Virus record (IMG/VR): IMGVR_UViG_3300024272_000051 | Coordinates: 32,001-96,000 of that record | Direction: 5' to 3' (one strand) | Length of the DNA stretch: 64,000 nucleotides | Origin: a virus | Taxonomy: Duplodnaviria; Caudoviricetes | In this document: piece by piece, positions 790 to 62,894 of the stretch | Position numbering within the stretch: position 1 is the stretch's first letter | How the letters are laid out: the number at the start of each line of letters is the position of its first letter | Translations under genes and position numbers: made by a program | Notes under the pieces: generated by a model | Database searches by the model: none | What the model was told of the DNA's origin: nothing | The model's input: only the letters and a program-made list of their open reading frames with translations

Positions 790-818
790 TTGACATTATA
801 CGCATTATGTGATATAAT
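790..818 (+). promoter_or_regulatory. Consensus sigma-A promoter of the mazF-mrpR operon
   Basis: TTGACA, 17-nt spacer, TATAAT with extended -10 TG. Confidence 0.85.
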
Positions 819-847
819 CAGCCCATCAAGATAAGGAGGGACTGAAC

Positions 848-1282
848 ATGAGCGAGACTCGTCACGAAGTGCGTATGGCTCCGATGATCGGAGAAGTTTA
901 CCTGATGAAGTTTGAAGGTAGCGGGAATGAGCAGAACGGGTGGAGACCTGGCGTGGTGTTCCAAAACAACACCGGCAACGCGCATAGCCCGAATGTGATA
1001 GCATTGCCATTAACAAGTTCAATCAAAAAAGCAATGCAGCCAACTCACGTGGTTGTCTACGCTGCAGATACTGGTCTACGCATGGATAGCATGGTGTTAT
1101 GTGAAAATCCTGAAAAGATGTCTAAGTCTAAAATCGGCAAGTTCATTACTAAGCTCTCCGATGATTACATGAGAAAGATCGCAATGGCTAATCTGATTGC
1201 AACGTCAGCGATTTCTTTTCTAAACGAAGCGGACTTGTTGGACGCATGGAGAAAGTCTATGAAGTTTAACTGTGCGGCATAG
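848..1282 (+). CDS. mazF: PemK/MazF family endoribonuclease (no adjacent antitoxin)
   Basis: GEVY..GxEQxGWRPGVVFQN..N..SP..IALPLTS..PTHV..DS..LCE; catalytic Arg and Thr positions retained; strong RBS. Confidence 0.9.
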   Translation: MSETRHEVRMAPMIGEVYLMKFEGSGNEQNGWRPGVVFQNNTGNAHSPNVIALPLTSSIKKAMQPTHVVVYAADTGLRMDSMVLCENPEKMSKSKIGKFITKLSDDYMRKIAMANLIATSAISFLNEADLLDAWRKSMKFNCAA

Positions 1283-1291
1283 GAGGTAGTC

Positions 1292-2224
1292 ATGTACAAC
1301 GAAGAGCGCAAGATGAGGTTCCTTGAAGAGACGAGATCATCCGTCGGATTTGGTAAGTCTGTATTTAAGACTATAGCCCCTTATGAACACGAGGCAAAGA
1401 TGGATCTGTGTGAGCTACCGATTGAGATTTTACAGCCAGTAGCAAACTCCAACTTTGGTTCACGAACGAGAACATCAGATTCAACCATCGCATTTCTTCG
1501 CGCATACACAACTTGGTGTAGGGAAGAAGGATTTCCAGTTGGGGATGGTGTATATCTGTTAAAAACAGAAATGGACGAAAAAGTTCGCCGTCTAATGATT
1601 GCGTCGCCTAAGCATCTTGAAGCCACACTAAACAAGGCGTTTGCACCAGTCCAGTCTGAAACAGTGGACTGTCTTTATCGTTGTTATTTATGGATGGCTT
1701 TTGCGGGGTTGAAGGATGTAGATGCACTGGATGTCAAAGTTTGCGAAATTGACTTTGATACGATGTTAATTGAACACAACGGAAGGTCTTATGAACTGTA
1801 TCGTGAAGCGGTTCCCACATTTAAAATGGCATGTAGTGCTACGCAATTCCGCTATATCAACCCAAATTATGGATCAGACAAGCAGGGTGGATATCGAAAT
1901 AGATATCCGGGAGAACTCCTCATGCGAGGTATTCGTTCGGAGCAAATTAAAATTGCAACTGTAAGAGCAAGCATTGGCAAGGCATTTAAAGAATGTGGTG
2001 TGGAAACTACCTATAACAAAATCCGACTGTCTGGATTGTTCTACAAGGCATATGAGATGGAACGATGTGGCGAAGAAGTTAATTTTGATGGTATTGTTGA
2101 AGAAAGACTTTCTCAGATGGATCACAAATACCACAAGAACTACACAAGAAATAAGGAAGCAAATGGAATTCGACGCGACTTGTTTGATGACTACGGTTGT
2201 TGGAAAGCAGCATTTGCAAGATAA
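1292..2224 (+). CDS. Degenerate tyrosine-recombinase-fold protein, MrpR/YopR-like lytic-cycle repressor
   Basis: MYNEExKxRFL N-terminus; LWMAFAGL and KIRLSG motifs lack the catalytic Arg and HxxR His; 310 aa. Confidence 0.65.
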   Translation: MYNEERKMRFLEETRSSVGFGKSVFKTIAPYEHEAKMDLCELPIEILQPVANSNFGSRTRTSDSTIAFLRAYTTWCREEGFPVGDGVYLLKTEMDEKVRRLMIASPKHLEATLNKAFAPVQSETVDCLYRCYLWMAFAGLKDVDALDVKVCEIDFDTMLIEHNGRSYELYREAVPTFKMACSATQFRYINPNYGSDKQGGYRNRYPGELLMRGIRSEQIKIATVRASIGKAFKECGVETTYNKIRLSGLFYKAYEMERCGEEVNFDGIVEERLSQMDHKYHKNYTRNKEANGIRRDLFDDYGCWKAAFAR

Positions 2225-2253
2225 AGAAGGAGGGGGAAGCCCTTCTTCTTTTT
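2225..2253 (+). terminator. Intrinsic terminator after the mrpR-like gene
   Basis: aagaaggaggg-ggaag-cccttcttctt followed by a T-run. Confidence 0.7.
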
Positions 2254-2551: not shown

Positions 2552-2638
2552 AATGCCTTGATTTAGGTATTAAGTGGAAGGTGTGCAGTGTTTCTATTAT
2601 CCATATAAAACACGAGTTTGGATGAAAGGGGTGATGAT

Positions 2639-3233: not shown

Positions 3234-3506
3234 ATGGCGTTATTTAAGAAAAAATCTACAGAAGATATTATCGAGCAAAAGAAAAAAGCGTTGGCGGGAT
3301 ATACTGCAGACTATGAAAATGCTGTCGGTTTAGTTACTGCAACAGTCAACCGAATGACCATGCTAGATGAAGATATTGGAAGAACAATTCAGGAGATTGA
3401 TGAGTATCAATCTGAATTAGAAGAAACAAAAAATGGATTGCTTGCAGCCAAGCAAAGAAATGAGAGCGTAATGAAGAACTTTAAAGCGCTGCTTAATGAG
3501 GAGTAA
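3234..3506 (+). CDS. Coiled-coil hypothetical protein
   Basis: RBS; heptad-rich 90 aa. Confidence 0.75.
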   Translation: MALFKKKSTEDIIEQKKKALAGYTADYENAVGLVTATVNRMTMLDEDIGRTIQEIDEYQSELEETKNGLLAAKQRNESVMKNFKALLNEE

Positions 3507-3519
3507 GTGAGGTGTCTCA

Positions 3520-4236
3520 ATGGCTGAAAAAATGAATATCTATCAAAAGTTGGCTAAGATCAGAAAGCCTGTCGAAGTCATCAAAAAGAATCGAAAAGGT
3601 TACGGATATACATACGTCGACGAAGAAGAAATTCTGTCTAAGATTACTGGATTAATGGGTAAGTATGGCGTTTCTCTTATTCCAAACATTACTCATGGAT
3701 CTGCAGTTGTGGAACCCTATCACTACACAAAAACAAAAACTACGAAAGACGGCACTCCATATGAGGAGCATGTAAACGAAGTTTTAGTGCGTGCAGATAT
3801 GGATTGGATCTGGATCAATGATGAAAATCCAGAAGACAGAGTTATTGTCCCATGGCTTTTTGTTGGAACCCAGTCAGACGCAAGTCAAGCTTTTGGTTCG
3901 GCGTTAACATATGCGTCAAGATATTTCCTATTAAAATACTTTAATGTTGCAACATCTGATGATGACCCAGACAACTGGAGAAGTCGTCAGAGAGAGGCGG
4001 AAAGCGAAGAAGATCGTTTGATTGCCGAAAAGATCGTAGATCAGATCCATGCCCTGGTAACAGAGCATCTTGCTGTTGCCCCCGAAGATAAACAGAATGT
4101 CATTGCAATTACTAAAAAGTATGTCAAGGAAAATGGCAAGGCAAGCGCAAATTACTATGCAATCGAAACTTCTGCAGTTGCATCCGAGCTTCTGAATGCG
4201 CTCAAAGCAGAGTTCGAAAATAATAAGGAGGAATAA
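3520..4236 (+). CDS. ERF family ssDNA-annealing protein
   Basis: KGYGYTY and QAFGSALTYASRY..DDDPD motifs. Confidence 0.9.
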   Translation: MAEKMNIYQKLAKIRKPVEVIKKNRKGYGYTYVDEEEILSKITGLMGKYGVSLIPNITHGSAVVEPYHYTKTKTTKDGTPYEEHVNEVLVRADMDWIWINDENPEDRVIVPWLFVGTQSDASQAFGSALTYASRYFLLKYFNVATSDDDPDNWRSRQREAESEEDRLIAEKIVDQIHALVTEHLAVAPEDKQNVIAITKKYVKENGKASANYYAIETSAVASELLNALKAEFENNKEE

Positions 4237-4239
4237 GAT

Positions 4240-4638
4240 ATGGGATTTCGTCAGGGCGGCTATATGACCGTGTGGTCAACAGAGACAAGTAAGTCAGGCA
4301 ACACCACGCGGGTTCGTCTTTCTTCTAGCCGTAAGAACAAGAAGACCGACGAGTATGAACAGGATTTTTCCGGGTTTTGTACATTCATCGGCCCCGCACA
4401 TGAAGCAGCTCAACACCTAAAGGAAAAAGATCGTATTAAAATTCTTGAGTGTGATGTTGGCACCACTTTTGACAAAGAAAAGAGAACTGAGTATGTCAAC
4501 TATAAGGTCTTTAGCTTTGAGATGGCGGATGGTTCTACCCCTGCAGGTGGAAAGACCACTGCTAACACAACCAAGAAAAAGGCGGCATTGGTTGACGATG
4601 GAGAAGTTGAAGTCGACGAAGATGGTTTGCCATTCTAA
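4240..4638 (+). CDS. ssb: Single-stranded DNA-binding protein
   Basis: OB-fold-like core, acidic tail ending DEDGLPF, next to ERF. Confidence 0.85.
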   Translation: MGFRQGGYMTVWSTETSKSGNTTRVRLSSSRKNKKTDEYEQDFSGFCTFIGPAHEAAQHLKEKDRIKILECDVGTTFDKEKRTEYVNYKVFSFEMADGSTPAGGKTTANTTKKKAALVDDGEVEVDEDGLPF

Positions 4639-4655
4639 CACTACGGTGACACCTT

Positions 4656-5429
4656 GTGAATTATTCAAATATCATATCTGATTTCACATGGTCTTACTCT
4701 CGTATTGGTCAATTTGAAATGTGTCCATACGCTTTTTTGCTCCATTATATTAAGCGCACCCCACATAAAAGACTGTTCTTTTCGGACTACGGGGTTTTTA
4801 TGCATAAGATAATCGAGCTCTACCTGAAGGGTGAACTTGACAAAAAAGATCTTGCATCGTATTACCTCGAAAACTTTCGTAAAGAGGTGAAGGGATACGC
4901 GCCAAGTAGAGATATCTTTAAAACCTATTTTGAGCAAGGATTGAATTATCTCCTCCATATTGATCGGTTTCCATATCAATTGCCACTTTGTGTTGAAGAA
5001 CAACTTGATTTCAATATTGAGGACAAGAAATTTACAGGAATTATTGACTGTATTGCAAAGGACGACGGTTTGATTATTGTTGACAATAAATCCAGAACCT
5101 TAAAACCACGTTCTAAAAGAAATAAGCCAACAAAGTCGGATGAAGAACTGGACGCTTATCTCAGACAATTGTATTTGTACAGCATACCTGTAAAATCCAC
5201 ATTTCATACATATCCGGCACGATTAGAGTTTAATTGTTTTAGAACGGGAGAGTTAATTTCTGAACCGTTCAGTGAAGAAAAATTTGAAGAAGCTAAACAA
5301 TGGGCGCTTAAAATGATTGATACGATTACTGACAACGAAGACTGGTCGCCAAAGATGGACTATTGGAAGTGCAGATATATCTGTGATTTTAGCGATAGCT
5401 GTGAATACTTCCAAATGAACAGAAAATAG
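4656..5429 (+). CDS. PD-(D/E)XK Cas4/RecB-like exonuclease
   Basis: WSYSR..CP, GIID..IVDNK, QLYLY and C-terminal Cys cluster. Confidence 0.85.
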   Translation: MNYSNIISDFTWSYSRIGQFEMCPYAFLLHYIKRTPHKRLFFSDYGVFMHKIIELYLKGELDKKDLASYYLENFRKEVKGYAPSRDIFKTYFEQGLNYLLHIDRFPYQLPLCVEEQLDFNIEDKKFTGIIDCIAKDDGLIIVDNKSRTLKPRSKRNKPTKSDEELDAYLRQLYLYSIPVKSTFHTYPARLEFNCFRTGELISEPFSEEKFEEAKQWALKMIDTITDNEDWSPKMDYWKCRYICDFSDSCEYFQMNRK

Positions 5430-5440
5430 GAGGTGGCACT

Positions 5441-6772
5441 ATGAATGTTTGTGACATCAATGATGTCGCAAGCGAAGCGGGAGTAATTGCTTCGGCGATT
5501 TTACATCCTGAGTTTGTGTTTTACTCAGAACAGCTTACCCCGCACCACTTCACAAATGATCAGAATGCTTATATGTACTACGCCATTTGTGAGTTGGCGA
5601 AAATGGGTATCGAAAAAATTGACGCATATAACATTACAAATATTTTGAATGCGAGACCATCAACGAGAGAGAAGGCGGCAAGCCTTCTCTCCATTGCTTC
5701 CATCACGGAGTTTATTGATAATGCACATAGCATTGCGCGAGATAGTGTCGAGGAATACAAGATGGTTTCTGACATGGTGTTAAATGCAGCGTTTCGTCGT
5801 GACACATATAACAAGCTTGTCGAGTGTCAGCGACTTTGCTTTAACAGCAACGAAAAAGAAATCGAGCAACAGATTTACTCTACACTTGACGATGTGATGA
5901 TGGAGTATTCCACCACAACGGAAGTTCCACAATATAAAGATGTTGTTGACGGCCTTTGGGAAGAAATAAAAGCACGCCAACAAAACGGTATGTCTGGAAT
6001 ACCATTCAAGTTTCCAACACTCAATCAGTATGTCAGCATTGAACCCGGAGAGCTTGTCGTGTTTGCCGCAGAGGCAAAGCAGGGCAAAAGTATGATGCTG
6101 CTCAACTGTGCTGTGGATCTATTAAAAAAGGGAAAAAAGGTTCTATATATTGATAGCGAACTTAACTCCCGGTTGTTTACATGTCGAATACTTTCACATT
6201 TGGCTAAGATCGAGTTTAGTCGTGTGCGAAGTGGCAATTATTCTACAGAAGAAGAGCAACGAATAAATATGTGTCTCAAATGGCTGAAAAAGCAAAGCTT
6301 CACTCATCTCTATATGCCGATGTTCGATGCTCAGAGCATTTATACAGCAGTCAAAAAAGTGAAGCACACACAAGGAATTGATGTTCTAATTATTGATTAT
6401 TTCAAGGGCAAAGGGGAGGGCGATGCCTTTGCTTCCTATCAGGAATTAGGTCGCCTCGTGGATATGGTTAAAAACCAAATATGTGGCGATATGAATATCG
6501 CAGGCATTGGAGCTGCACAAGCAACTGTTACTGGCAAGGTTGCTGACAGCGCGAAGATCGGTCGCAATGCTTCGACAATTGCTATTATTCAAGACAAGCT
6601 TCCAGAAGAGATTGAGGCGGACGGACCGGAGTGCGGCAATAAAAAACTACGTATTGTTCTAAACAGAAACGGAGCACAAATGTCGCAGGACGAATACATA
6701 GATCTAAACTTCCAAGGAAATATAATTTCGTATGAAGAAGCTGCGCAACATGTTGTGCAAACGCCATATTAA
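5441..6772 (+). CDS. dnaB: DnaB-like replicative helicase
   Basis: Walker A AEAKQGKS, Walker B LIIDY, NRNG arginine finger. Confidence 0.9.
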   Translation: MNVCDINDVASEAGVIASAILHPEFVFYSEQLTPHHFTNDQNAYMYYAICELAKMGIEKIDAYNITNILNARPSTREKAASLLSIASITEFIDNAHSIARDSVEEYKMVSDMVLNAAFRRDTYNKLVECQRLCFNSNEKEIEQQIYSTLDDVMMEYSTTTEVPQYKDVVDGLWEEIKARQQNGMSGIPFKFPTLNQYVSIEPGELVVFAAEAKQGKSMMLLNCAVDLLKKGKKVLYIDSELNSRLFTCRILSHLAKIEFSRVRSGNYSTEEEQRINMCLKWLKKQSFTHLYMPMFDAQSIYTAVKKVKHTQGIDVLIIDYFKGKGEGDAFASYQELGRLVDMVKNQICGDMNIAGIGAAQATVTGKVADSAKIGRNASTIAIIQDKLPEEIEADGPECGNKKLRIVLNRNGAQMSQDEYIDLNFQGNIISYEEAAQHVVQTPY

Positions 6773-18900: not shown

Positions 18901-19092
18901 ATGTTAAATGGTTTAGAAGTATATACAGTTAAGGAAATTCAGGAATTATTTAAGTGTGGAAAAAGACAAGCCTATGAACTTATGCGTTCTCCGTCATTTC
19001 CCTCAATCAAAGTTGGAGGAAGATACATAGTCGAAAAAAGTGCCCTGCAGCGCTGGTTTTCGACATATGAAGGATCATATTTCATCATTTGA
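18901..19092 (+). CDS. xis: Excisionase-like HTH protein
   Basis: YTVKEI..GKRQAYELM..FPSIKVGGRYIV; directly upstream of int. Confidence 0.8.
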   Translation: MLNGLEVYTVKEIQELFKCGKRQAYELMRSPSFPSIKVGGRYIVEKSALQRWFSTYEGSYFII

Positions 19093-19106
19093 GGAGGCGT
19101 ATGTTT

Positions 19107-20225
19107 ATGGCAAAGTCTGGAAGTATTTCAAAAAGAGCAGATGGTCGGTGGACAGTAAAATACAAGAACAGGCAAACGACCTGCAAAACAGAAGCTGAAG
19201 CAAAACGGAAGCTTAAAGAAATGAAAGCGGTAAGCATAATACAAGCTGTCCCGGTGGCAAAATTGACTGCTGAAGATGCTATAACGAAGTGGCTAAGTGT
19301 ACAACAAGTTAGGCTGAAACCGAGTAGTTTTGACAGGCTTGAGCAGGTTTGGGAAAACCAAGTAAAGCTGTATTTTGCAAAACAGCAGTTCAGTACAATC
19401 AAAAAAGGCGACATAGATGATATGCTGATTGATCTATGTAATAAGGGATACTCCTATTCGACGGTCAAGAAAGCATTTGAGCTTTTAAGCGGGTGTTTCA
19501 GATATTATCTGGAACGAGAAACAATAACCAGTGATCCAACCACCTTTGTAAAAGTGCCATCTGTTAACAAGAAACCAAAAGGCGAAATCATATTCTATGA
19601 AGAAGACGAGCTACGCAAAATTTATGATGCGTCAACCAGAAAGTATTCCAATGGGGTGCCTGTGTTCAGACAGGGGTGGGCAATTGTTCTGCTCGGCAAT
19701 ACAGGACTACGCCTTGGTGAGCTTTGTGGGTTGACATGGGACAATGTTGACTTTAAGAAAAAACAAATTATAATCAAAGGAAATAGGGTATTGGTAAAGA
19801 ACCGAGATGAGGGTGCAACAACCAGAAACAAGCTTGTTGACCAAAAGGTTACAAAGACACAGAATGGTATGCGCACAGTTCCTCTCAATGAGATGGCCGT
19901 AGAAGCACTCATAGAACTACAAAAGATAAAGAGTAGTAACTATGTGCTTGCATCGAGACACGGCAATCCGACATACCCTAAGGTGTTAGACACGACATTC
20001 CGCAGAGTGTTAAAAGCTGCGGGCATACCAGAAGATAGGATTTATGGTGTGCACTCTCTCAGACATTCGTTTGCGACTACGCTAATACGAAATGGAGTGT
20101 CGCCCAAGACAGTCTCCAAACTATTAGGGCATGGAGACATCAACATTACATTACAGACGTATGTTCATGCACTGCAAAATGACTACTCAGACGCAGTTGC
20201 GATGTTGGACAGAGCTATAAAATAG
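19107..20225 (+). CDS. int: Tyrosine integrase
   Basis: Arm-binding N-terminus GSISKRADGRW; TGLRLGE, HSLRH, LGH and TY catalytic motifs. Confidence 0.95.
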   Translation: MAKSGSISKRADGRWTVKYKNRQTTCKTEAEAKRKLKEMKAVSIIQAVPVAKLTAEDAITKWLSVQQVRLKPSSFDRLEQVWENQVKLYFAKQQFSTIKKGDIDDMLIDLCNKGYSYSTVKKAFELLSGCFRYYLERETITSDPTTFVKVPSVNKKPKGEIIFYEEDELRKIYDASTRKYSNGVPVFRQGWAIVLLGNTGLRLGELCGLTWDNVDFKKKQIIIKGNRVLVKNRDEGATTRNKLVDQKVTKTQNGMRTVPLNEMAVEALIELQKIKSSNYVLASRHGNPTYPKVLDTTFRRVLKAAGIPEDRIYGVHSLRHSFATTLIRNGVSPKTVSKLLGHGDINITLQTYVHALQNDYSDAVAMLDRAIK

Positions 20226-21829: not shown

Positions 21830-22207
21830 TTATATTGATGGACTGTCTTTTGAAATAGATTGCTTTAAGAACCCTTTGGCTTGAGCAGAAGCAAAAGTAA
21901 TACCATCACCATTGCCACCCACATTTTCTGCCCTATTCTTATCGACCACACGGCTTATAGCAATGCTTACTGCTGTACCTATCGGAGTAAAGACAACTGT
22001 CCAGCACATAAGAGCGCCGGTATACCCAGTGGAAATACTCTTCAGGGCAAGATAAAAGCCGCCGACCAAACCGGCAGCAAGAAAGAGTAGTATGTAGAGG
22101 GCGAGTCGATTAGTAAAACCAAGCTTAGCAAAATGAGCCAATAGGGGACAGCCCTTCTTCTGCTTCTCTTTTTTGGGCTTTGTGTTTTTGCTAATCAAGA
22201 CTATCAC
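21830..22207 (-). CDS. Two-TM membrane protein (holin-like)
   Basis: Basic N-terminus, two hydrophobic segments, KNRAEN; overlaps the endolysin stop. Confidence 0.6.
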   Translation of the reverse strand: MIVLISKNTKPKKEKQKKGCPLLAHFAKLGFTNRLALYILLFLAAGLVGGFYLALKSISTGYTGALMCWTVVFTPIGTAVSIAISRVVDKNRAENVGGNGDGITFASAQAKGFLKQSISKDSPSI

Positions 22208-23007
22208 ACCTTACCCATCATCTTTGCAAATCTGTATAGGATGGTAGCCATCTGCTCTCTTGTGAGAACGTCTTCCCACATATAGTTGGGTTCACCGGTA
22301 GCAGTTACATTACCGCCAGTGATCAAACCAGAGTTAATAGCCCAGTCACGAGCTTCCTTGCTCCACTGTGCGGAATCATTATCCTGCAGACCTTCGCGCA
22401 TCTGCAGCCACAGTTCTCTAAATCTTTCAACGTTCATATCATCATCCTCCTCGAACTCCATGCCCTCGACCAAGGAATAGTCGGGGCGACCATATCTGCC
22501 ATAACTAATTGGATAAGACTTGGGCGCAACACCACCGCCATTAGCGACTACGCCAGATGCTGCAGATGTATTGCCCTCGATTGTATAGACTCGTCCATCG
22601 CGTACATCAATAACAAGACCAGTGTGGTAAGATGTAGCCCATCCATCGTTGCTGAAGAAAATTTGGTCTCCGGGCTTAGGCTCGGTCTTCAGCTGACCCT
22701 TTGCTTTGTAGTACTTCATAGAGAACTCACAGCCGGCACCAAGACCGCCCATGGGTTGACACAGAAGCTTCATGCCCATTTCAAGACCAAAAGCCTTGAT
22801 AAAGCACCAGTCAACAAAGACATCACACCAGTGATATCCATTCTTGTTACCGTTGTAAACTCCGAGCTGAGCAAGATCTCTGGCATACTTAGTCCAGTTG
22901 TTATAACCGGCATTGCCTGTGTGACTGTCGAGATTAGAGTTAGTTGCCTTTTCAAGATACCCAATCTCATTCTTTGCCACTTGAATTACTTTTTCAATTG
23001 CTGTCAA
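22204..23007 (-). CDS. CHAP endolysin with C-terminal SLH domain
   Basis: EIGYLEK, WCDVFVDW, HTGLV, IEGNT; W..EA..W...GLI.G..LTREQMATILYR; TTG start after AAGGAGG. Confidence 0.88.
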   Translation of the reverse strand: MTAIEKVIQVAKNEIGYLEKATNSNLDSHTGNAGYNNWTKYARDLAQLGVYNGNKNGYHWCDVFVDWCFIKAFGLEMGMKLLCQPMGGLGAGCEFSMKYYKAKGQLKTEPKPGDQIFFSNDGWATSYHTGLVIDVRDGRVYTIEGNTSAASGVVANGGGVAPKSYPISYGRYGRPDYSLVEGMEFEEDDDMNVERFRELWLQMREGLQDNDSAQWSKEARDWAINSGLITGGNVTATGEPNYMWEDVLTREQMATILYRFAKMMGKV

Positions 23008-23089
23008 GAATATTCCTCCTTCCAAGCCAATCGATTTTTTAGAATGATTCCTAGAGCCATCAGATTCGTTTCTGGTGGCTTATTTTTTT

Positions 23090-61762: not shown

Positions 61763-62794
61763 TTATAAGTCCGACAGCTTTGTTGGCTGTGCAGCCTTAA
61801 TACCGTTTTCGTCAAAATATTGATCAAGTTGTTCTTCCGTTGTTAAATCCTTGTAGATTCGCACCATATCGCTGGAAGTCCAACCAATAATCTCCTGAAT
61901 TACACCATCTGGCAATCCTGAGCGTGCAAGACTTGTAGTAAAATAATGTCGCATTGCGTGCCAATAAAAATCAACATTGATCAAATTGCCAAATGTGATC
62001 GCCCAACTATTTAATGTCTCTGGCTTCATCTGTTTTGAATAATCTTCTTTGAGCGGGAAGAGCCATACACTATCTATTCCTTGCTCTTTGCGCTGCTTCA
62101 ACCAGCGATCAAGATATGGTTTAAACTTTTTTGCTAAAGTATAACAGTAGATATATTTTCCAAGGCCAAAACCCTTTGTTTTAATAGTCTCACTGGTTTT
62201 GTACAGTGCGCCACCACACACAAGATTCTCCTCTTTAAAATCGTCAACCTTAAATCGAACAAGTTCCGATTTTCTGCGCCCAGAAAACATAGCGAGCGCA
62301 AGCATACACGCTTTCTCGTAGTGCCCTTTTTCTGTTAGAATGTCTAGCAGATCGTCAAGCTGTGAATCTGACAAGACTGTTTTTTCACGTACTTGCTGAT
62401 TGACTGGGGACTCAATTTTTCTAACAATAGAACGAAAATCCTTAAACTCTGGCTCGTCATCTAAAATTGCCTCAATAAAATTAGACAAAGAAGAAATCGC
62501 AGATTTTATTCTGCGAACTCTCGATGGAGAATTCTCATTTTCGTTAATGAGCCAGTTTTGAAAAGAAACAAGATCTCGTTTGCTTACTTCGGAAAAATTC
62601 TTGTTGCCAAGATTTTTCATACAGTACACAAAGAAGATATCGAGATCGTTGTCGTATCCACGTATTGTCCCAGGACTTCGCTGAACAGACTTCAGATAGT
62701 CTAAAAAGTCCTTTTTTAAGCGTAAGTTGTCTGGATTGATTTGAGAGACAAGTTCGGGGCTTGTCAGGTCGTTCATTTTTGTTTTTCTTGGCAT
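61763..62794 (-). CDS. Second tyrosine recombinase (XerC/D-like)
   Basis: SAM-like N-domain; SGRRKSEL, TKG, HAMRH, IGW, RIY. Confidence 0.88.
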   Translation of the reverse strand: MPRKTKMNDLTSPELVSQINPDNLRLKKDFLDYLKSVQRSPGTIRGYDNDLDIFFVYCMKNLGNKNFSEVSKRDLVSFQNWLINENENSPSRVRRIKSAISSLSNFIEAILDDEPEFKDFRSIVRKIESPVNQQVREKTVLSDSQLDDLLDILTEKGHYEKACMLALAMFSGRRKSELVRFKVDDFKEENLVCGGALYKTSETIKTKGFGLGKYIYCYTLAKKFKPYLDRWLKQRKEQGIDSVWLFPLKEDYSKQMKPETLNSWAITFGNLINVDFYWHAMRHYFTTSLARSGLPDGVIQEIIGWTSSDMVRIYKDLTTEEQLDQYFDENGIKAAQPTKLSDL

Positions 62795-62819
62795 ACAAGC
62801 CACCTCCTTGTCTTAAACT

Positions 62820-62894
62820 TGGGTGCGAAGGCTGGATTCGAACCAGCGTCTACGGCTCATGAGGCCATCAAGGAAACCACTCCTCCACTCCGCA
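62820..62894 (-). tRNA. tRNA-Met(CAT), atypical initiator-like
   Basis: Full 75-nt cloverleaf: TGCGGAG/CTTCGCA acceptor stem, ATGGC-CTCATGA-GCCGT anticodon arm, GGTTCGAATCC, encoded CCA. Confidence 0.85.

Follow-up and report, generated by a model that had tools for sequence, protein, structure and literature searches.

In a 64,000-nucleotide stretch of a Caudoviricetes genome (the window; bases 32001–96000 of IMG/VR record IMGVR_UViG_3300024272_000051, with coordinates given in the window unless prefixed G000), a mazF toxin gene without an adjacent antitoxin gene shares a transcription unit with a distant member of the MrpR/YopR/SroF family of recombinase-fold repressors, directly downstream of a small open reading frame, ORF452, whose promoter is followed by LexA-type boxes. 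We hold it about evenly balanced whether the three genes of region 173–2251 make up an SOS-responsive module for the lysis/lysogeny decision, of the SPbeta (SroF/MrpR) type and with an acquired MazF of its own. The MrpR/SroF family and MazF proteins of PF02452 are known; what appears to be new here, as far as sequence comparison can tell, are two features of ORF452: its SOS-type control and its joint evolution with the repressor.

In the Bacillus phages phi3T and SPbeta, the recombinase-fold protein SroF/MrpR (YopR) acts as a repressor (PMC10516654), and in SPbeta-like phages it co-evolves with Sar, a LexA-controlled antirepressor that forms an intertwined dimer mimicking DNA (bioRxiv 10.1101/2025.11.27.690993). 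The MazEF system of the host takes part in the arbitrium decision of phi3T, in which AimX and YosL bind MazF and phi3T_93 binds MazE (PMC10769878). The original prediction, which read the window's mazF as part of a MazF-based lysogeny switch, had invoked both the degenerate-recombinase repressor and the involvement of host MazEF, and these papers bear it out on each.

By analogy, the MrpR-like protein would be the dormancy repressor of this phage, binding boxes that overlap the −35 element of its own promoter, and other sites, and regulating that promoter. DNA damage would remove LexA—or the CI-like S24 protein that the phage itself supplies in its place in most relatives—so that ORF452 would be made, and ORF452 would inactivate the MrpR-like repressor as Sar does SroF in phi3T. 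MazF, produced together with the repressor, would act as a second, RNA-level brake on lytic growth or as a guard of the lysogen, a phage enzyme standing in for the host MazF used by phi3T. No canonical phage MazE would restrain it, leaving host MazE, ORF452 and the MrpR-like protein as candidates. The result is a testable model with named parts: LexA or the CI-like protein, ORF452, the MrpR-like protein and MazF.

A mazF gene paired with an MrpR/SroF-like gene

The unit begins with a sigma-A promoter on the + strand (790–818), made up of TTGACA (790–795), a 17-nt spacer and TATAAT (813–818) with an extended −10 (TG), matching the consensus at 12/12 positions; across the two strands of the 104-kb record there is one other promoter of this quality, at window coordinate 70878 on the − strand. 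mazF (848–1282, +; 144 amino acids) starts at an ATG behind the ribosome-binding site AAGGAGG (832–838), and because just 29 nt separate the −10 element from the start codon, there is no room for a gene 5′ of it. The stop codon of mazF ends at 1282 and the next ATG lies at 1292, giving a 9-nt gap, with AGGAGG as ribosome-binding site; the second gene (1292–2224, +) is followed by an intrinsic terminator (2223–2251, +; a 12-pair stem and then a T run) that ends the unit. This layout is the one first read from the letters, including the perfect promoter that leaves no space for mazE. The mazF leader folds no better than shuffled sequences, and an Rfam search of the locus returned a single, chance-level match.

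The mazF product is a MazF/PemK endoribonuclease by its match to PF02452 (PemK_toxin; 76.6 bits against a cut-off of 23.1, 2e-21) and to phrog_1936, and in the PDB it matches the S. aureus and B. subtilis MazF structures at 6e-18 to 8e-16. In the alignment, Arg33 (in GWRPG) and Thr56 (in LPLTS) occupy the positions of the catalytic Arg and Thr in S. aureus MazF, and neither varies among 19 relatives, so the earlier claim that the catalytic pair is retained holds; we take the corresponding residues of B. subtilis MazF to be Arg25 and Thr48. The phage family departs from classical MazF in a C-terminal extension of ~25 amino acids, conserved among the phage proteins and absent from the classical ones (the C-terminal 34 amino acids find no match in the PDB), and in the segment LCENPEKMSK, found where canonical enzymes have LLEQIRTxDK. 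Given this replacement, specificity for UACAU, the cut site of the B. subtilis and S. aureus enzymes, cannot be assumed for the phage MazF, whose cut site may differ.

The second gene encodes a 310-amino-acid protein with a tyrosine-recombinase fold and a degenerate active site, presumably a DNA-binding repressor. It matches PF22822 (MrpR_N_CB, the N-terminal core-binding domain) at 41.2 bits over a cut-off of 27, and does not match the tyrosine recombinase family PF00589. Whereas a PDB search with the single sequence found nothing, a profile of 27 homologues recovered YopR/MrpR (8bj6) at 6.6e-5 over residues 1–271, nearly the full length. An AlphaFold2 model of the protein (predicted local distance difference test score, pLDDT, of 90) gave MrpR, YopR and SroF at Foldseek ranks 1–7, with MrpR 8a0a at 3e-9 and DNA-bound SroF 9rd5 at a template modelling score of 0.60; XerA and Cre (1e-5 or weaker) and lambda Int ranked below them. 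Arg I (motif GLR), which lies in the single stretch that aligns with the phage's own integrase, is replaced by Lys and is variable across the family; alignment with YopR shows no conservation of the HxxR motif of box II; and the C-terminal tyrosine is kept as Tyr301 (compare Tyr304 of MrpR). PF22822 recurs in all but three of 105 MrpR-like homologues, the exceptions being shorter proteins, and many of the homologues lie on contigs of ~100 kb. On the basis of the Pfam, PDB-profile and fold matches, 1292–2224 encodes a true relative of MrpR/YopR/SroF and a distant member of that family: it shares the MrpR N-terminal domain, full-length profile homology, best fold match and degenerate active site, and differs in an identity of ~15%. 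The resemblance to MrpR that had been proposed is thus upheld by both the profile and the structure searches. A recombinase-fold gene lying between inverted repeats raised the idea of an invertible segment, which we set aside in view of the degenerate active site.

A candidate operator lies at the promoter of the unit. The box CTTCATAAATTATTGTTGACA (also given as CYTCATAAAWWAKTGTTGAYA; 775–795, +) overlies the mazF promoter from its UP region through the −35 element, and similar copies occur at G000 96338, 99963 and 102886 (64338, 67963 and 70886 in window numbering, hence beyond its end), all on the + strand, in a region of − strand genes near a 273-amino-acid integrase-family gene. Many relatives carry a phage-specific box of 17–29 nt over the same UP region and −35 element, with an inverted copy just past the operon terminator. 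Examples are L024 (3451–3479 and 5000–5028; 29 nt, 86% identical) and L035 (1778–1800 and 3325–3347; 23 nt, 87%), with further cases in L036, L001 and L003. The arms differ between phages but do so in step, and 32 of 83 loci score at or above the 99th percentile of control windows for such a flanking inverted box. An exact k-mer search of the genome for repeated operators returned nothing.

The gene pair recurs in some 110 related loci belonging to gut Clostridia phages and prophages. In the best 80 viral loci found from the MazF side, the MrpR-like gene is directly downstream in 77 and ORF452 directly upstream in 76. IMG/VR relatives at 59–63% identity retain the full order of ORF452, mazF, MrpR-like gene, ORF2275 and HD-domain gene, and homologues at 36–39% identity still have PemK directly upstream, one of them in a small, decayed integrated element with a different context inside a 240-kb bacterial contig. 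Among 31 loci from species-representative genomes, mostly metagenome-assembled genomes of Oscillospiraceae and other Clostridia, the pair is present wherever upstream DNA exists, with three exceptions; seen from the repressor side, it persists in nearly all loci down to ~30% identity, other genomic contexts included. Related modules are also embedded in contigs of bacterial DNA, 240 kb to 1.4 Mb in size. The mazF promoter (TTGACA, 17 nt, TATA(A/C)T, TG) is conserved in every family locus inspected, so that mazF and the MrpR-like gene form a transcription unit of their own everywhere, and in some relatives the stop codon of the one overlaps the start codon of the other. Since promoter, gene order and spacing recur across about 110 related loci, they are not due to chance, and the pairing that was first noticed in a single sequence extends far beyond close relatives. 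No paper that we found describes an SroF-like gene next to a phage MazF; in PADLOC the pairing is without a model, and none of the four proteins searched has a match there.

The exceptions are informative. L114, a complete 114-kb phage with terminal repeats, carries a solitary mazF (3468–3899) with catalytic residues and C-terminal extension intact, followed by a terminator and by isochorismatase and NAD synthase genes, and has neither an MrpR-like gene nor ORF452 anywhere in its genome. In L128 and L107 mazF and the MrpR-like gene have other genes lying between them, and in L045 ORF452 directly precedes the MrpR-like gene without mazF. L047 (Anaerovorax sp. IOR16; 3989–5519) has an MrpR-like gene (24% identity, PF22822), a terminator, a separate promoter and then a classical short MazF, without the C-terminal extension and without a visible MazE. 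Together these five loci argue that neither the MrpR-like protein nor ORF452 is indispensable as an antitoxin.

ORF452 and its co-evolution with the MrpR-like protein

ORF452 (452–760, +; 102 amino acids, with the ribosome-binding site GGAGG 8 nt upstream) is our candidate for an SOS-induced antirepressor. The predicted sigma-A promoter of its leader and coding region (173–201, +) has TTGACA, a 17-nt spacer, TAGCAT and the TG extension (10/12 matches), and is followed, 21–46 nt past the −10 element, by two overlapping LexA (Cheo) boxes, CAAACGAATGTTCG at 222–235 and CGAATAAGTGTTCG at 234–247, both on the + strand. Each box has 1 mismatch to CGAAC-N4-GTTCG, and there are three boxes of this quality in the whole 104-kb genome. 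A leader of ~250 nt (202–451) with repeated TGCA motifs separates this promoter from ORF452; leaders of 200–300 nt are found in relatives.

Most relatives have, just upstream of ORF452, a divergent CI/LexA-like gene of ~265 amino acids with HTH_3 and Peptidase_S24 domains. The gene is absent from this phage (window 95–451 compared with L138:1373–2167 and L001:2073–2888) and from its 86%-identical relative L137, and is present in a 72%-identical relative. In relatives with the gene, the sequence immediately 5′ of ORF452 is homologous to bases 310–459 of the window, and a terminator scan marks a hairpin in the ORF452 leader (283–312, −) that is possibly a remnant of a deleted CI-like gene. Across 90 non-redundant loci, gene and box exclude each other: a LexA box occurs in 0/68 loci with the CI-like gene and in 12/22 loci without it (Fisher P = 2e-9). 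In those 12 relatives the box mostly lies within a few nucleotides of the −10 element of a strong promoter and, with the box following the −10 so closely, these loci resemble classic LexA-repressed promoters. Judging from these motifs, the ORF452 promoter appears to be DNA-damage responsive in 80/90 loci, by way of either host LexA or a self-cleaving repressor of the phage.

The AlphaFold2 model of ORF452 (pLDDT 93) has a pleckstrin homology (PH)-like beta fold, the best match being B. subtilis YojF at a Z of 7.3, which is not informative; searches of Pfam (with 19 members), PHROGs, PADLOC, NCBIfam and viral structures assigned it to no family. Pairwise protein distances across 83 non-redundant loci are correlated between ORF452 and the MrpR-like protein (Spearman 0.85, and 0.81 when MazF is controlled for), and this correlation persists within bins of fixed MazF distance. 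Between ORF452 and MazF the correlation is 0.04 when the MrpR-like protein is controlled for, although mazF sits between the two genes, and MazF is itself weakly correlated with the MrpR-like protein (partial 0.27). ORF452 thus co-evolves tightly with the MrpR-like protein and not with MazF. A comparison of L110/L111 with L112 gives the same picture: MazF is 96% identical, the MrpR-like protein 63% and ORF452 36%, as if the flanking pair had been exchanged, or had diversified, around a conserved mazF.

These results modify the earlier picture of a self-contained switch made of mazF and its repressor. The two are co-transcribed, as proposed, yet they do not stand alone, ORF452 behind its LexA boxes being the likely third part, and in L114 MazF occurs without an MrpR-like gene. 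LexA-controlled antirepressor switches are familiar from Tum of coliphage 186, the Gifsy phages and N15, where a non-cleavable repressor is combined with a small gene behind an SOS-repressed promoter. The present locus shares with them a repressor beside such a gene, and differs in the folds of both repressor and candidate antirepressor and in having a ribonuclease toxin in the repressor operon.

Several points weigh against reading the region as an SroF–Sar-like switch with a built-in MazF. ORF452 has no likeness to Sar in fold searches—9rgl (Sar) is not among the fold matches of its model, a monomer model that may miss an intertwined dimer—and with a pI of 8.4 it is not acidic. The CI-like S24 protein beside the module in most relatives could be the true master repressor, with the MrpR-like protein as an accessory; the term master repressor, used in the original prediction, is therefore unsafe for a family in which most members carry a CI-like repressor, although this phage and L137 lack that gene. 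MazF can, to judge from L114, work outside the module. Copies of the mazF-promoter box are absent from shuffled genomes, but their consensus was built partly from the same sites, which makes them weak evidence, and the right (inverted) arm of the flanking box was not found in the window itself. Finally, the loci are mutually related, so that the counts and P values overstate their independence.

That MazF is simply a moron, one that inserted next to an ancestral repressor gene and has since been passed down along with it without joint function, strikes us as very improbable. The loci are all members of a single broad lineage of phages whose gene order is shared, and conservation could reflect descent alone; MazF has nonetheless stayed intact, with invariant catalytic residues, while neighbouring genes fall to 30% and 15% identity. 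Promoter and coupling have been kept too, and the pair is maintained in other genomic contexts and through a swap of both flanking genes.

We regard as quite improbable a non-canonical three-gene arrangement in which ORF452 would neutralise MazF as its antitoxin, leaving the MrpR-like protein with transcriptional regulation alone. The divergence of ORF452 does not track MazF once the MrpR-like protein is controlled for, and its PH-like fold is not that of AbrB, ribbon–helix–helix or Phd antitoxins. Its place directly upstream of mazF in 76/80 of the best loci, its fast evolution, as is often seen with antitoxins, and the lack of a terminator between the two genes would all suit such a role. 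Against this, mazF has its own strong and conserved promoter, from which toxin would be made without ORF452; SOS repression would leave ORF452 absent from a resting lysogen; and MazF is found without ORF452 in L013, L040, L044 and L114.

Restraint and role of MazF

A toxin normally held by an antitoxin here lies in a repressor operon without one. In six frames of the 104-kb record (88% complete) there is no MazE/AbrB domain (PF04014), and a single MazF is present. The unit lacks what defines a mazEF operon: no cognate MazE/PemI antitoxin gene stands beside the toxin. MazF is therefore an orphan, as it was originally described, the PH-like fold of ORF452 being no antitoxin fold. With mazEF and pemIK operons the unit has in common the toxin domain, the catalytic Arg and Thr, and co-transcription with a predicted DNA-binding protein; it is set apart by the missing MazE/PemI gene, by the toxin coming first, by a 310-amino-acid partner of recombinase fold and by a strong promoter of the toxin's own.

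The antitoxin might instead be the partner itself. A toxin-first type II toxin–antitoxin pair, serving addiction or abortive infection, would have the MrpR-like protein bind MazF and repress its own promoter, with lysogeny controlled elsewhere, by the CI-like protein in relatives. The tight coupling of the genes (a 9-nt gap here, overlapping stop and start codons in relatives), their nearly constant association, the lack of any other antitoxin domain and the box overlapping the −35 element are what such a pair would be expected to show; the C-terminal extension, found among MazFs only in this family and lacking in the classical enzyme of L047, and the survival of the module in small decayed integrated elements point the same way. 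We nevertheless think it unlikely. Conservation is much higher in MazF than in the MrpR-like protein, the distances of the two are weakly correlated (partial 0.27), and the MrpR-like protein tracks ORF452 instead; complete phage L114 has MazF without the putative antitoxin, genes separate the two in L128 and L107, and we know of no antitoxin with a tyrosine-recombinase fold. A complex prediction for the MazF dimer with the MrpR-like protein scored 0.00, which gives no verdict and is not evidence either way.

Restraint by a host antitoxin is possible. Five host genomes with related prophages (L143–L147) contain canonical chromosomal MazF genes; in L143 (76–1842) the order is alr-mazE-mazF, as in B. 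subtilis, and the host MazF is 42% identical to the core of the phage MazF, and in L144 the host MazF likewise lies beside alr.

Counts of UACAU were made in the module genes. The mazF–MrpR-like unit contains one site (1166) and the MrpR-like gene none. In the first 33 loci, MrpR-like genes held 14 sites against 23.4 ± 3.8 expected, a depletion that we rejected once 104 genes gave 71 against 82 ± 7 and control pentamers deviated equally; ORF452 shows no enrichment. The most depleted pentamers in the mazF and MrpR-like genes of 33 loci are GGACC (6 against 27 expected) and GGTCC (5 against 24), a pattern that suggests avoidance of a GGWCC restriction site, and no other pentamer avoidance stands out in the operon.

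A bolder reading, rather less likely than not in our view, makes MazF an antitoxin-free, built-in effector of the switch that would cut particular phage or host RNAs, an RNA-level lock beside the DNA-level lock of the repressor, with SOS-induced ORF452 releasing one or both; a gut phage lineage would then have internalised the reliance on host MazEF shown by the Bacillus arbitrium phages. A different role, as an early ribonuclease for host shut-off in lytic infection, like RegB of T4, seems improbable to us. In that case the module would head the early replication operon, and the MrpR-like protein would time the early genes. The module does lie directly upstream of the replication genes, PHROG classes the MazF family under host takeover, the promoter is strong and of host type, and L114 is a complete phage with MazF alone. 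But the unit is closed by a terminator, pairs MazF with a homologue of a proven prophage repressor, adjoins a gene with SOS-type control, and persists in decayed prophage remnants that lack lytic genes.

If the proposal of a three-gene switch with its own MazF is right, this phage owns the MazF that Bacillus phages borrow from their host. ORF452 would represent a new antirepressor fold, the system would answer how an orphan MazF is tolerated, and the module would be a marker of a temperate lifestyle in gut viromes.

Genome context

The record is linear, 104,404 bp long and rated 88% complete. Early and replication genes occupy the + strand to ~20 kb of the window (HD protein, ERF, PDDEXK, DnaB, primase and a Pol III alpha subunit of ~1,095 amino acids), with the mazF/MrpR-like module directly 5′ of them, and large structural genes lie on the − strand. 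Three genes match the tyrosine recombinase family PF00589 above its cut-off: 19089–20225 (+), beside lysis genes, 61763–62803 (−) and G000 101973–102794 (−). A serine recombinase and an HTH_3 protein are both absent from the 104-kb record. Three integrases, together with the related modules embedded in large bacterial contigs (240 kb to 1.4 Mb), indicate a temperate lifestyle. The region of the 19089–20225 integrase and the lysis genes, among them a CHAP endolysin (22204–23025), is a plausible attachment-site region.

With SPbeta and phi3T this virus shares large size and a replication module with Pol III alpha, and with the SroF/MrpR–Sar system a small neighbour gene behind LexA boxes that co-evolves with the repressor. 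Work on recombinase-fold repressors of the SPbeta type has been confined to Bacillus phages, and the locus extends the system to abundant, uncultured phages of gut Clostridia; the hosts here are not Bacillus but Oscillospiraceae and relatives. Directly 5′ of the repressor gene lies mazF and not sroE/yopQ, ORF452 has no detectable likeness to Sar, and the part of host LexA falls in most relatives to a CI-like S24 protein of the phage. As with the host MazEF of phi3T, the SPbeta-type repressor operon is linked with a B. subtilis/S. aureus-type MazF, and hosts of related prophages carry chromosomal MazF; here, however, MazF is phage-encoded and has both the C-terminal extension and LCENPEKMSK for LLEQIRTxDK. 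No homologue of AimX, YosL or phi3T_93 was identified, no search having been aimed at aimR, aimP or aimX.

DNA and protein searches of the GenBank phage collection gave no similar phage record and no homologue, no RNA runs are listed as containing the window sequence, and no expression data were found. On its left the module is isolated by a terminator hairpin (62–94, +; 13-pair stem, scored on the − strand too) that closes the upstream gene array. On its right lies ORF2275 (2275–2481, +; 68 amino acids), a conserved small gene whose homologues are downstream of the module in close relatives and elsewhere in distant ones; it has one weak, sub-threshold match, to the arm-binding domain of lambda Int.

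A tRNA gene lies directly 3′ of the module in several relatives. In the window itself a tRNA-Met gene is found at 62820–62894 (−), and its T-arm motif GGATTCGAACC occurs 5 further times upstream of the window (G000 4–23 kb); from these five copies the phage probably carries several tRNA genes. A 36-nt element with the internal palindrome GTGTTT...AAACAC is present twice, at window 2584–2619 and G000 563–598 (86% identical), the first copy lying just 5′ of the HD-domain gene; the element could be a promoter or an operator.

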